The notes beneath the pieces are model-generated. The model ran no database searches, was not told where the DNA came from, and worked only from the letters and a program-made list of their open reading frames with translations. Shown here piece after piece: positions 1 through 25,544 of a stretch of DNA of 64,000 nt (within the stretch, counting starts at the first letter, position 1; each line of letters starts with the position of its first letter). A program made the translations under genes and the position numbers. Origin of the DNA: an archaeon (GTDB lineage Archaea; Nanobdellota; Nanobdellia; Pacearchaeales; GW2011-AR1); the NCBI GenBank assembly GCA_018657525.1, contig JABHWZ010000009.1, positions 2,855 through 66,854 of the forward strand, written 5' to 3'.

Positions 1-35
1 TGCGTATGATAATTTTCTTTTAGTCTTTTAATCCC

Positions 36-64
36 AATCTTTCAATAAATTTCTCTTTATCAAA
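36..64. repeat. downstream duplicate of the ftsY 3' end; on the minus strand it reads FDKEKFIERLGLKD-stop
   Basis: aatctttcaataaatttctctttatcaaa is identical at 36-64 and 180-208; weaker similarity continues about 9 nt further. Confidence 0.85.
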
Positions 65-169
65 TGAAATAAACCTAAGCGGTTTCCTTTCACAATCCTT
101 CCCTTCCTTTGCGGTTAGGTGGTTTCTTTTAATTGCGTTTACAGATACCACGTTTGATAAAGAATTATT

Positions 170-1411
170 TTATAGTCCTAATCTTTCAATAAATTTCTCT
201 TTATCAAAGGGTTCAATTTTGTCATATTCTTGTCCGGTTCCTAAATATAGAATTGGTCTTTTTGTTACGTGCCCTACACTTAATGCTGTTCCGCCTTTGT
301 CGTCGATATCTGCTTTGCTTAGAATTATTCCATCGATTCCAATTGAGAAATTAAATGAACGAATTTGTTCAATAGCGTCGTTTCCGGTTGTTGATTCTCC
401 GACATAGATTTTTAAATCTGGATTGCAAACTCGTGCTATTTTTTCTATTTGTGCCATTAGATTTTTTGAAGTGTGCATTCGCCCGGCAGTATCAATTAAT
501 ACACAATCTAATTTATTTTTTTCAGCGTATTTTATTGCATCAAAGCCAACTGATGCAGGATCAGATTCATATCCATGAGCAATTACTGGCACTCCTATTT
601 TCTCTCCGTGTTTTTTTATTTGTTCAATTGAGGCCGCTCTAAAAGTATCTGCTGCAGCTAAAACACATGAAATGTTTTGCTTTTTCATAGCGTCGGCAAT
701 TTTTGCTATTGAAGTTGTTTTTCCGGTTCCATTTATTCCGCAAAATAAAATGACAAAAGGTTTGGATTTATCTTCCCTTGATTTTATCTTCCCATAAATA
801 TCAAATGGTTCAATTAGGATTTCATAAATTATATCTTTAAAGGATTCCATTATCTGTCCCTCAATTTCTTTTTTTAGTAATTCTTTACCGACGACTTTTT
901 CTTTTAGTTCTGCAATTATTTTTTCTGCAACTTCAAAAGCTACATTGTTTTCTAAAAGCAACATTTCTAGTTCTTCTGCATAAATGTCAAATTGTTCTTC
1001 TGAAATTTTTACTTTTGTTATTTTTGATTTTACTTTTGAAAAAAATGATTCTTTTGTTTCTTTTTCGGTTGTTTGAGGATTTTCTTTAATTATTGTTTTG
1101 GGTTTTTCTTGAATTTTTTTTGCTGGCTTTTCTTGGATTATTTCTTTTTCAAGTTCTTTAAGTTTTTCTAAATCTGGTCTGAAGCTTTTATCAAAAACTT
1201 GAAATTTCATTGGCATTGAAATTTCTTTTTTGGATTTTTTATCTTTATTGATTTCTTTTTTTGAAGTTTTTGATATTTTTTTTGTCTCTTTTTTAATATC
1301 TTTAACAATTTTGGCTTCAGCTTTGTCTATAACTTTCTTTGTTTTTTCTTCTACGTCGCTGGTGAACTTTTTTGTCCAAGCTTTTAATTTATCTTTTAGT
1401 TTTCCAAACAT
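170..1411 (-). CDS. ftsY: signal recognition particle receptor FtsY
   Basis: SRP-GTPase NG domain motifs GINGTGKTT, DTAGR, LSKADID; Lys/Glu-rich N-terminus; no M domain. Confidence 0.9.
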   Translation of the reverse strand: MFGKLKDKLKAWTKKFTSDVEEKTKKVIDKAEAKIVKDIKKETKKISKTSKKEINKDKKSKKEISMPMKFQVFDKSFRPDLEKLKELEKEIIQEKPAKKIQEKPKTIIKENPQTTEKETKESFFSKVKSKITKVKISEEQFDIYAEELEMLLLENNVAFEVAEKIIAELKEKVVGKELLKKEIEGQIMESFKDIIYEILIEPFDIYGKIKSREDKSKPFVILFCGINGTGKTTSIAKIADAMKKQNISCVLAAADTFRAASIEQIKKHGEKIGVPVIAHGYESDPASVGFDAIKYAEKNKLDCVLIDTAGRMHTSKNLMAQIEKIARVCNPDLKIYVGESTTGNDAIEQIRSFNFSIGIDGIILSKADIDDKGGTALSVGHVTKRPILYLGTGQEYDKIEPFDKEKFIERLGL

Positions 1412-1484: not shown

Positions 1485-2927
1485 ATGGAAAAAAAGAGTG
1501 CGTTTATTTTGGGTATATTGTTTTCTATATCATTAGTTATTGCTGCGCAAGTTATTACAACTTCTGGGGGTGCAACATCTTATTCAGTTCTTGAAGATTT
1601 GACTTTTAATTTTAATATGACTGTGAATAATACTGATGTAGATGTTAACATTACTCAGGTTAATATGACTATCCCAAGTTCATTTAGTTTTTTAGTAAAT
1701 TCAAATGGCACAAATGCAGCGACTCATACTTTTTCCAATACTACTACTATTTTGACTTGGACGCATGATGGGTTGGTTCAAAATGTAACTTCTAATTATC
1801 TTTGGTTTAATGCAACTCCTGCAACTCCTGGACTTTATAATATCACTGTAACCAGTTTAAATACTACTGGAACTTCAGCAACAAATATTGCAGTTACAGT
1901 GAATGATACAAATAGTCCTTCTGAAATTAATTTTACTTCTCCAATAACTTATGGAAATTATTCTGGAACATTGATTTTGAATATTACTCTTATTGATGAT
2001 GGAACAATGGATTTGGTGTTTTTTAATGTAACAAATAGTACAGGGGGACAGAATGCAACTTATACTGCTTCAAATCCTTCTGGGAATTATTGGAATGCTT
2101 CATTACTTACTACTGATTTTGTCGACGGAACTTATAATATAACTGTTTGGTCAAATGATTCAGCCGGGAATGCTAATAACACAGTGGTTGCATCTAATTT
2201 GACTTTTGATAATACCAATCCTACTGTTACTTTTAGCTGTAGTCCTACAAGTGTGAGAAGAGGAACAGCAACTACTTGTACTTGTACTCCTGCAGATGGA
2301 GGTTCAGGAGTTAATGCAGCTTTAACTTCTCTTACTGCGAGCCCTTCAACTACAAGTGTTGGGGCGTTTACTACTACATGTACTTATGCTGATTTGGCAG
2401 GGAATACTGGGAGCACAACTGCATCATATACTGTTACAAGCGAGGGAGGTATTTCATCTGGTAGCGGAACCCCTTCTTTTTACCAAAATACTTATGTTCA
2501 TAATGAACAAGAGTTGGATGAATTTCAAAAGCAATTGAAAGTAAAAGAAAGAGTTAAATTAAAAATTAATTCGCAAACGCATTATGTGGGTATTAAAGAA
2601 TTGACTGATGAGAGTGTTACTTTGGAAATTCAAAGTGATCCAATTGAAGTTACTTTAAAAATTGGGGAAGAGAAAAGAGTGGATGTTGATGCTGATGATA
2701 TTTTAGATTTGATTGTAAAGTTAAATGGTATTACAAATAATCAGGCAGATTTAATTGTTATAGCCATAGAAGAAGGGGTGGGGGGGGAACCTGTAGGTGA
2801 GATTGTTGATGGAGTTGAAGTAACTGAAAGTGAGGAAAAAGGATCTTCAGCGGGGGTTATTATCTTAGTTATTTTAGTTGTTGTTTTGATTTTAATTGGC
2901 TTAAAATTAAAATCAGGTAAAAAATAA
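1485..2927 (+). CDS. cell-surface glycoprotein-like protein with signal peptide, very many N-x-S/T sequons and a C-terminal TM anchor
   Basis: Start moved to ATG 1485 (MEKKSAFILGILFSISLVIAAQ, preceded by gagagggg). Thr/Asn-rich body; C-terminus AGVIILVILVVVLILIGLKLKSGKK. The track's upstream extension overlaps ftsY. Confidence 0.7.
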   Translation: MEKKSAFILGILFSISLVIAAQVITTSGGATSYSVLEDLTFNFNMTVNNTDVDVNITQVNMTIPSSFSFLVNSNGTNAATHTFSNTTTILTWTHDGLVQNVTSNYLWFNATPATPGLYNITVTSLNTTGTSATNIAVTVNDTNSPSEINFTSPITYGNYSGTLILNITLIDDGTMDLVFFNVTNSTGGQNATYTASNPSGNYWNASLLTTDFVDGTYNITVWSNDSAGNANNTVVASNLTFDNTNPTVTFSCSPTSVRRGTATTCTCTPADGGSGVNAALTSLTASPSTTSVGAFTTTCTYADLAGNTGSTTASYTVTSEGGISSGSGTPSFYQNTYVHNEQELDEFQKQLKVKERVKLKINSQTHYVGIKELTDESVTLEIQSDPIEVTLKIGEEKRVDVDADDILDLIVKLNGITNNQADLIVIAIEEGVGGEPVGEIVDGVEVTESEEKGSSAGVIILVILVVVLILIGLKLKSGKK

Positions 2928-7149: not shown

Positions 7150-7221
7150 AGCCTGCGGAGGGATTCAAACCCCCGACCTATTCCTTACAAGGGAATTGCT
7201 CTATCACTGAGCTACGCAGGC
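7150..7221 (-). tRNA. tRNA-Thr (anticodon TGT)
   Basis: The reverse complement folds as a cloverleaf: GCCTGCG acceptor, anticodon loop CTTGTAA, T-arm GGGGG-TTTGAAT-CCCTC, discriminator T. Confidence 0.9.
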
Positions 7222-18394: not shown

Positions 18395-18431
18395 AAAAGT
18401 TTTTTAAGCTGAGTTATACTACTTTTTTCAT
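18395..18431 (+). promoter_or_regulatory. tRNA-Leu promoter (BRE/TATA-like aaaagttttttaagc about 27-37 nt upstream of the tRNA 5' end)
   Basis: A/T box at the canonical archaeal distance; a similar aaaagtt box lies upstream of tRNA-Cys. Confidence 0.5.
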
Positions 18432-18514
18432 GCGGGTATGCCGGAGTGGTCAAACGGGTCAGGTTTAGGACCTGATAGCTTATGCTTACTTAGGTTCGAA
18501 TCCTAATACCCGCA
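18432..18514 (+). tRNA. tRNA-Leu (anticodon TAG), long variable arm
   Basis: GCGGGTA acceptor, anticodon loop TTTAGGA, 15-nt variable arm, T-arm TTAGG-TTCGAAT-CCTAA. Confidence 0.9.
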
Positions 18515-18595
18515 TTTATTGAGATTCGAAGCCTCGGGTTTCGTTGAAGAATTGTGAAGCAATTGCTTTGGCGAGCGAGGATTTACATCCGACGC
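18515..18595 (+). repeat. family A module, tRNA-Leu locus (variant central segment)
   Basis: gattcgaagcctcgggtttcgtt...gagcgaggatttacatccgacgc shared with 21403-21604 (reverse strand) and 22832-22904. Confidence 0.85.
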
Positions 18596-21495: not shown

Positions 21496-21604
21496 TGGCC
21501 CGGACAGGATTCGGCGTCGGATGTAAATCCTCGCTCGTCCGCTATTGAAATTCTGAAGCGAACGAAACCCAAGGCTTCGAATCCAAATAATTTCTTAAAA
21601 ATTA
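21496..21604 (-). repeat. tandem unit 2: tRNA-Arg positions 56-73, family A module, and a copy of the tRNA trailer
   Basis: About 95 percent identical to unit 1; periods of 111 and 109 nt. Confidence 0.9.
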
Positions 21605-21679
21605 TGGCCCGGACAGGATTCGAACCTGCGACTTTCAGCTTAGAAGGCTGACACTCTATCCAGGCTGAGTTACCGAGCC
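21605..21679 (-). tRNA. tRNA-Arg (anticodon TCT)
   Basis: Reverse complement GGCTCGG acceptor, anticodon loop CTTCTAA, T-arm GCAGG-TTCGAAT-CCTGT. Confidence 0.9.
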
Positions 21680-21733
21680 ATAATAATATTTAAGATAAAA
21701 ACATATTTAAAAGTGTTTGTTTTTAAAGTTAAA

Positions 21734-22758: not shown

Positions 22759-22831
22759 GCGCGGATGGCACAGCGGCTACTGCGTCTCCCTGCAGAGGAG
22801 ATTTTCACGGGTTCGAGTCCCGTTCCGCGCT
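22759..22831 (+). tRNA. tRNA-Cys (anticodon GCA)
   Basis: GCGCGGA acceptor, anticodon loop CTGCAGA, T-arm ACGGG-TTCGAGT-CCCGT. Confidence 0.85.
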
Positions 22832-25212: not shown

Positions 25213-25412
25213 GTCGCTTCGCTCTCTACTCCGTAGAATGAGAGTTTCTATTTAAATTTGGAAATCTCATGATCACTTCGTTCTCTACTTCGTAGAACAT
25301 CAATTTCTGTAGAAATTGACATAAACCACCGACGTTCTGTGGAACAAAAAGTTATCTGAATTTTGGGAGCCTAAATTCTCAAAAATTTAAATGGCATTGA
25401 AAATGCCATAAA
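25213..25412. repeat. 200-nt mosaic insert: D-short (25213-25238), atgaga...tctcat hairpin module (25239-25270), D-long (25271-25360), hairpin atggcattgaaaatgccat
   Basis: Matches 6751-6840 (family D) and the atgaga...ttggaaaatctcat module at 46483-46576. Confidence 0.8.
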
Positions 25413-25485
25413 TGGCTCTGGTGAGAGTTTAACTCACGACCTCTGCCTCATGAGAGCAGCGCTCTAAACACTGAGCTACAGAGCC
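25413..25485 (-). tRNA. tRNA with CAT anticodon (elongator Met or Ile2) with atypical D and T loops
   Basis: Reverse complement GGCTCTG acceptor, anticodon loop CTCATGA, D-loop AGTGTTTA, T-loop TTAAACT. Confidence 0.75.
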
Positions 25486-25544
25486 AAACTTAAAAGAATA
25501 ATTTCATTTAAAAGGTTTTTTAAAGTTTAATTCTATCCAGGAAT

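Follow-up and report, generated by a model that had tools for sequence, protein, structure and literature searches.

Downstream of ftsY, the gene for the signal recognition particle (SRP) receptor of what is apparently a small archaeon of the DPANN type, the end of the gene is repeated, and a short structured element sits between the copies. We analysed the locus in a window of 64,000 nucleotides (nt) (C2:2855-66854, C2 being one of 14 contigs of an 828-kb assembly with 32% G+C that is 84% complete). The element is a gene-less, structured, multi-copy family, present in about one-third of the genomes of one archaeal family. On balance we favour the explanation that the repeat was left behind by a miniature insertion element without genes, accompanied by either a long target duplication or a spare gene end. 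In the proposed arrangement, read in the sense of ftsY, the working gene end (copy A) and its stop codon are followed by a 17-nt spacer, the 88-nt element, a second gene end (copy B), 49 nt and a partial third end (copy C). The features are as follows (window coordinates):

170..1411, minus strand: ftsY coding sequence (413 amino acids, SRP receptor; from the list of open reading frames (ORFs))
170..208, minus strand: copy A, the working end of ftsY, with codons FDKEKFIERLGL and the stop TAA (ORF list, repeat search)
153..169, minus strand: 17-nt spacer after the stop codon, of which 153-164 is an inverted copy of the repeat start
65..152, minus strand: 88-nt element of the two-hairpin family (model R1; BLAST, alignment, covariance model)
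119..151, minus strand: hairpin P1, GTGGTATC ... GAAACCAC (arms 144-151 and 119-126; family helix 1)
71..85, minus strand: hairpin P2, AAACC-GCTTA-GGTTT (family helix 2)
20..64, minus strand: copy B, the displaced second end, reading FDKEKFIERLGLKD-stop and joined to the 3′ end of the element (repeat proper, 26-64)
1..19, minus strand: start of the 49-nt stretch between copies B and C, copy C itself lying outside the window

The repeated end of ftsY

The 29-mer AATCTTTCAATAAATTTCTCTTTATCAAA is present in exact copies at positions 36-64 and 180-208 of the window, which are its only two occurrences in the whole 828-kb genome. With up to three mismatches allowed, no further copy was found in the window, and none of 100 dinucleotide shuffles contained a match. 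Extended, the direct repeat measures 39 nt at 92% identity (26-64 versus 170-208, spacing 144) and comprises the last 12 ftsY codons plus the stop. The original prediction, made from the sequence of the window, had reported the 29-nt duplication 144 bp apart, a partial similarity beyond it and the endings of the two frames, and on all of these it was accurate: ftsY ends in ...FDKEKFIERLGL-stop, and a 43-amino-acid ORF at 20..151 of the minus strand, which runs into copy B, ends in ...FDKEKFIERLGLKD-stop. This ORF is almost certainly not a gene, and the ftsY stop at 170-172 is the real one. The Pfam domains SRP54_N and SRP54 were matched on an identical FtsY product, and ftsY homologues were detected in 39 of 41 related genomes. 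Three positions distinguish copy A from copy B, TTA/TTG and CTA/TTA (both leucine, synonymous) and TAA/AAA. Five independent public assemblies that encode an identical FtsY are 100% identical over the 476 nt downstream of it, indicating that the locus is real and fixed in the species rather than an artefact of assembly.

The 105 nt between copies A and B consist of the 17-nt spacer and the 88-nt element. The spacer ends in TTCTTTATCAAA, which reverse-complements the opening 12 nt of the repeat, TTTGATAAAGAG; 11 nt of this match are exact, none of 300 shuffles reproduced it, and in the RNA fold the spacer pairs with copy A. The element matches the covariance model of its family with 77.7-77.8 bits over window positions 60-157 (E 1e-17 to 6e-16). 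The intervening DNA, earlier described as unrelated, is thus an inverted copy of the repeat start plus a member of a dispersed element family. An inverted repeat noted earlier, aacctaa/ttaggtg, is present in this copy but is not among the two helices conserved in the family.

The original prediction had also suggested that more might lie upstream of position 1. The region before the window was covered by reading the first 6 kb of contig C2, and a third, partial copy of the gene end, AGATTGGGTTTAAAAGATTAA, was indeed found there at C2:2795-2824, 30-59 nt before the window start and 49 nt from copy B. Copy C matches the tail of copy B at 23 of 30 positions (0/5000 shuffles reach this match) and reads RLGLKD-stop, with GGA/GGT and GAC/GAT as its sole coding differences from B. 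Since this third copy lies beyond B, the ftsY end appears to have been displaced twice. For the 49 nt between B and C, no repeat family or fold was identified. A frame ending ...ENYHTHTTGSDGKLNPEDWV-stop in this stretch looks like a PHP phosphoesterase N-terminus; no genomic paralogue turned up by tblastn, and the likeness was taken as chance.

Past copy C come a structured, GC-rich repeat of a different family, about 200 nt long, and then a cytidine-deaminase-like gene. GC-rich structured intergenic repeats occupy C2:397-800, 1856-2050 and 2590-2800 and recur on contigs C4, C10, C12 and C14; an LD-carboxypeptidase-like gene is flanked by two of those on C2, which hold mutually inverted segments (GTCAGGCACACA / TGTGTGCCTGAC).

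A dispersed two-hairpin element family

BLAST with the 88-nt element returned matches of 55-75 nt (identity 76-95%) in many genomes belonging to the same taxonomic family, each with several. Twenty-nine family copies were aligned over about 90 nt, giving the consensus TGCGATTTYC..GGAGGCAATTAAAGAAATCGC-TTCACCGCAAAGGAAGGGAAA..-AAAAACC-GCTTA-GGTTGTTTTCA. In helix 1, 89% of the cells are paired and six of the eight pairs show compensatory changes. Helix 2, the hairpin P2 at ftsY, is the most conserved part of the family: 91% of its cells are paired, three pairs show compensatory changes, and its loop and CC/GG are invariant. Jointly, the two helices have 90.4% of cells paired and compensatory changes in 9 of 16 pairs, values that none of 500 column shuffles reached, while slid partners paired at 38-58%. 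A covariance model built from the alignment was run on 121 genomes of this archaeal family and found the element in 40 of them (39 of 120 genera); the number of copies in a genome reaches 22 and is four in the present one. Rfam 15 gave no match over the ftsY locus at E<=1, and no description of the family was found in the literature searched. The BLAST matches, the aligned copies, the covarying helices and the model matches together indicate that the insert at ftsY is a family member and not unique filler. The original prediction had allowed for a local duplication around unique intervening DNA; the sequence search shows a multi-copy family of 85-95 nt instead.

Of 49 sampled copies, 24 are followed by a long ORF whose ATG lies 0-3 nt past the 3′ end of the element. 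Reading their N-terminal sequences, we take these genes to be mostly housekeeping ones (L11, S3Ae, EF-2, pheT, TBP, a proteasome subunit and RNase J). Two copies have their 3′ end at tRNA position +1, and at none of the 29 best family loci is there an overlap with an ARAGORN tRNA gene. The same genes (L11, S3Ae, pheT and ftsY) carry the element in different genera. In this genome, one copy (C9:75348-75443) ends exactly at the start codon of pheT, and another (C6:2163-2255) has a gene start (MKNKRGWIRIVE) on either side, in two 39-nt copies that are identical, with an 8-nt inverted copy of the repeat's end adjoining the 5′ end of the element. The reading frame through the element varies among loci, so there is no conserved element peptide.

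The complete layout of ftsY end, 15-17-nt spacer, element and a second set of the last 12 codons plus stop was found in G168, G247 and G107, which represent three genera other than the host's; the layout is thus present in four genera. G001, from the host's genus, has a decayed version in which copy B is degenerate and the element is reduced to its 3′ half (39 bits). In these four genomes, as here, the 3′ end of the element is fused to the same phenylalanine codon of the ftsY end. FtsY of G168 and G247 is 74% and 64% identical to the host's, and genera at 66-76% identity lack the insert. This patchy spread therefore requires that the insert was cleanly lost more than once, was gained more than once at one site, or was passed on by homologous recombination.

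The bracketing extends to other genes. The end of a gene for an SMC-like ATPase is bracketed likewise in G115 and G199, as are gene starts, namely that of a helicase in G002, one gene start in G060/G135/G045, and the one on contig C6 here. The polarity is constant: in the orientation of the element the order is copy 1, spacer, element, copy 2, with copy 2 fused to the element's 3′ end, and the working copy is whichever keeps the gene continuous. For nine of the 49 sampled copies, the sequence adjoining the element's 3′ end is significantly repeated upstream; from the start of that upstream repeat to the end of the element the distance is 134-144 nt in seven of the nine, the remaining two having 170 and 214 nt. 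Beside the element's 5′ end, an inverted copy of the repeat start, spelled in different letters, was also seen in G001, in G247 and at the C6 locus. Only here is the distance between A and B a multiple of three with an open frame; G168 is out of frame, and G199 and G115 have a stop, which rules out read-through, or an in-frame extension of ftsY, into copy B.

In G002, which belongs to the host's genus, the insert after ftsY gave no match to the family model, and a likeness by eye to the same family with a nested insert is therefore not claimed. The stretch 1909-2060, in the position of the element, is another insert, GC-rich and about 150 nt long, with the inverted pair TTATTTGTCAA / TAGACAAATA at its two sides. 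In relatives, srp54 directly follows ftsY; here it lies on contig C14 (start C14:7933, minus strand), where a structured, GC-rich insert about 150 nt long separates a conserved promoter-like motif (CCCAAAACTTATTAAC) from the srp54 ATG; a possible decayed copy of the gene start comes before this insert.

Origin of the second gene end

The above results can be accommodated in a simple scheme. The proximal copy A ends the protein, and copies B and C would be displaced relics of two successive events at one gene end. The element may have been placed by a one-sided precise joining, exact at the 3′ junction and leaving a variable spacer on the 5′ side, which would either have duplicated about 40 nt of the target or have brought a spare functional gene end from a relative. 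In either version ftsY would never have been interrupted. An insertion that left the gene intact had been proposed earlier, and it agrees with the position of the insert between two gene-end copies, of which A is complete.

The differences between the copies bear on which version applies. In G168, copies A and B differ at 7 nt in five codons, all synonymously, and at the SMC gene of G199 they differ at 10 nt in eight codons, again all synonymously and including a TCG/AGT serine switch; for G168 and G199, none of 50,000 simulated sets of random changes gave an all-synonymous outcome. G107 has eight synonymous differences and one non-synonymous, and G247 three and one. Among true pairs of ftsY orthologues that differ at 6-8 nt, only 1 of 23 has no amino-acid difference. 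Distances between the B copies of different genera (mean about 9/36 nt) are no larger than those between the A copies, and A/B copy distances over four genomes gave no clear clustering that would tell which copy travels with the element. Because the A/B differences in relatives are almost all synonymous, the relic does not behave as a simple decaying duplication. Possibly one copy came from another lineage as a working end, or B is still selected; with only three differing positions, the copies of this genome fit both alternatives. The idea in the original prediction that the insertion carried its own copy of the gene end thus holds in part: the near-synonymous differences in relatives resemble an end from another lineage, but duplication of the target is also possible.

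The suggestion that the distal copy might be the ancestral end also received a divided answer. The tail of copy B has two extra codons (KD), the KD-stop tail is repeated in copy C, and FtsY of G008 ends in GLED-stop, resembling the GLKD-stop of B; however, 12 of 13 relatives have a C-terminus of GL-stop, as in copy A. The conserved motif of the ftsY-srp54 spacer directly adjoins the distal copy in G168, an arrangement that in-situ duplication and an imported end predict alike. The 29-nt identity here, set against the decayed copy B of G001, suggests recent homogenization or conversion, or a newer event.

Several points weigh against an insertion element. Mobility is inferred from copy number and distribution and was not observed, and among the five assemblies with an identical FtsY there is no empty-site allele, all of them carrying the insert. 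No mobilizing enzyme was identified in the genome. The presence of the element at the same genes across genera fits old, retained and possibly functional copies equally well. As judged from the compared copies, plain target duplication followed by neutral decay of B is not enough for the synonymous pattern in relatives. Finally, an insertion shared with G001, where B has decayed, requires an extra assumption to explain why A and B are identical over 29 nt here.

The enzyme searches behind one of these points covered several classes. Cas1 (PF01867) gave no match in the 84%-complete genome, while control genomes were detected, and no IS200-type Y1 transposase was found in it, DDE transposase families lying outside the search. 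The genome has a single tyrosine recombinase gene (Phage_integrase domain), on contig C6, and a single reverse transcriptase, on contig C8, beside imperfect repeats of 81-151 nt laid out like a diversity-generating retroelement; neither is linked to the ftsY locus. On C8 (205786-208700), the RVT_1 gene (69.8 bits) is preceded by two ORFs whose 3′ ends (206475-206625 and 207234-207384), together with an intergenic stretch of 81 nt (207591-207671), form imperfect repeats at 77-89% identity, a layout that resembles a diversity-generating retroelement with two target genes. Such a retroelement was ruled out at ftsY: the reverse transcriptase is on C8, ftsY is a housekeeping gene and the mismatch pattern is wrong, two of the three A/B differences being A versus G or T and one C versus T with no adenine in either copy.

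We also considered a functional RNA module, possible though clearly less likely, in which the element would serve as a 'punctuation' or processing signal, as a structured leader or as a removed intron-like sequence and copy B would have been kept because it is used. B might be used after RNA-level removal of the insert, or recombination between A and B might make B the real end, with the duplication as a failsafe. The covariation of both hairpins, which places the structure under selection, speaks for such a role, as do the 24 of 49 copies that stop 0-3 nt short of the ATG of a long ORF, in most cases a housekeeping one, the others that end at tRNA +1, and the recurrence of the element at the same genes in different genera. 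The almost entirely synonymous A/B differences in relatives and the B-to-B distances not above A-to-A point the same way, and so does a spacer that stays complementary to the repeat start through different letters in G000, G001 and G247. Yet no canonical bulge-helix-bulge, in which a 4-bp helix lies between two 3-nt bulges, was seen at the insert boundaries by inspection and folding, no dedicated motif scan having been made; by the same means the helix of spacer and repeat start has 11-12 uninterrupted base pairs, the spacer/B helix here being 12 uninterrupted pairs. The count of 0/29 best family loci overlapping ARAGORN tRNA genes, the failure of read-through to explain B, with an open frame here only, and the decay of B in G001 without loss of ftsY are further difficulties. 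There is a small chance, in our estimate, that the element's 3′ edge sets where the downstream RNA begins, be it at a start codon or at tRNA +1, and that both gene ends are under selection at the protein level because they are used.

In the original prediction the duplication was likened to attachment sites. It now seems improbable that the repeats are the left and right attachment sites (attL/attR) of an integrase-driven element that brought its own ftsY 3′ end and was later deleted almost entirely. Direct repeats with a perfect 29-nt core do bracket foreign DNA at both ends of the insert and overlap the 3′ end of the target gene; the synonymous recoding of the spare end in relatives is like that of phage-borne replacement ends, and tRNA 3′ ends in this genome are repeated from the T-loop to the end, which Williams reportedly described in 2002 as a classic integrase sublocation. 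The insert, however, is only 105 nt long and holds no integrase gene and no ORF remnant of an integrase or any other gene, its only ORF being the 43-amino-acid frame that runs into B. The same 88-nt element, and not random remnants, is found at this site in four genera and at unrelated sites, each of which would need its own integrase specificity, while the sole tyrosine recombinase gene of the genome lies on another contig. Membership of the insert in the element family largely refutes attachment sites in the integrase sense.

Least probable of all, and hardly tenable, is a purely local origin, by replication slippage at the ftsY end or by its tandem duplication, in which no mobile or transferable element took part. 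The copies are close (144 nt) and identical over 29 nt, and a repeat-plus-module unit is tandemly amplified at a tRNA-Arg gene in the window, but the DNA after B is unlike the DNA after A and the intervening DNA is a copy of a family found in 39 genera. A likeness between the spacer after A and the downstream flank of B was rejected, the best local alignment being reached by 99 of 1000 shuffles.

tRNA genes and known systems

The likeness to a pattern at tRNA genes, drawn in the original prediction, was confirmed in that tRNA ends are repeated around small modules in this genome. Genome-wide, with exact seeds of at least 14 nt, 9 of 26 tRNAs have their 3′ end repeated 54-202 nt downstream, and 5 of 26 have their 5′ end repeated 66-200 nt upstream. 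In the window, tRNA genes with repeated ends lie at 7150-7221, 18431-18515, 21604-21680, 22759-22831 and 25412-25486; by BLAST, with mismatches allowed, the last 17-19 nt recur 74-218 nt downstream for five of the window's six tRNA genes. The conserved modules at these genes (e.g. GATTCGAAGCCTTGGGTTTCG...GGATTTACATCCGACGCC) differ from the ftsY element, and at tRNA-Arg(TCT) two units stand in tandem. A 25-nt match to Rfam CRISPR-DR25 elsewhere in the window (2517-2541, minus strand; 32 bits, below the gathering score) lies inside a large surface-protein-like ORF with no array and is probably due to chance.

Small archaeal genomes of this type are usually called streamlined and poor in mobile DNA. 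Here a gene-less element of 85-95 nt sits at essential genes, namely at ftsY, at genes for an SMC-like ATPase, ribosomal proteins and EF-2, at pheT and at tRNAs, and is repeatedly accompanied by a second, silently recoded end of the neighbouring gene. If both copies are selected, this would point to RNA-level removal or frequent excision and would bear on the arrival of archaeal introns. If the element is a functional RNA module, compact archaeal genomes would tolerate and exploit inserts at essential genes, a possible route of intron spread.

Small non-autonomous prokaryotic repeats include miniature transposable elements with inverted repeats (MITEs), repetitive extragenic palindromes and bacterial interspersed mosaic elements (REP/BIME), palindrome-associated elements and Rickettsia palindromic elements, with typical duplications of 2-10 nt. 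The ftsY element is like MITE/REP-type repeats in being short, gene-less, structured and multi-copy and in lying at gene borders in AT-rich genomes. It differs from them in several respects: no terminal inverted repeats of its own were recognized, the family ends TGCGATTT... / ...GGTTGTTTTCA not being inverted copies of each other; the inverted pair that brackets it is target sequence and differs by locus; its target duplications are not short and of fixed length but range over about 24-42 nt (about 40 nt here); one junction is exact and one variable; and no related transposase was found among the enzyme classes searched. Repeats of this kind have been reviewed (PMC10969869, PMC11602168).

Casposons and CRISPR spacer integration, which depend on Cas1-type integrases, also insert at the 3′ ends of tRNA genes or of a conserved protein gene and directly duplicate the target, the repeat duplicated in spacer integration measuring about 30 nt (PMC5137440). 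Casposons are multi-kb elements with duplications of 14-15 bp, unlike the gene-less insert described here, and the present genome has no Cas1.

Bulge-helix-bulge introns of archaea and the 'transposed' families of tRNA introns in Thermoproteales have been reviewed (PMC4090602), and how the tRNA introns of Asgard archaea arrived is left open in a preprint (10.64898/2026.10.13.758758). In common with archaeal introns, the ftsY insert is a small structured insert by tRNA and essential genes, with flanking target sequence that pairs across it. Unlike them, it lies behind the stop codon and thus outside the coding gene, shows no canonical bulge-helix-bulge on inspection, and has none of its 29 best family loci inside a tRNA gene.

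Integrative elements that bring a replacement 3′ end are exemplified by prophage e14 and phage 21 in icd of Escherichia coli, and by tRNA-gene-targeting integrases. Compared with e14 and phage 21, the element at ftsY has no gene, makes an insert of 88 nt plus 17 nt, occupies many unrelated sites and is flanked on its 5′ side by an inverted copy of target sequence. In common with them, it leaves the target intact through a second copy of the gene end, with a displaced relic downstream and differences between the copies that are biased to synonymous changes. If spare ends do move between lineages with this element, it would be an integrase-free analogue of phage-borne replacement gene ends.

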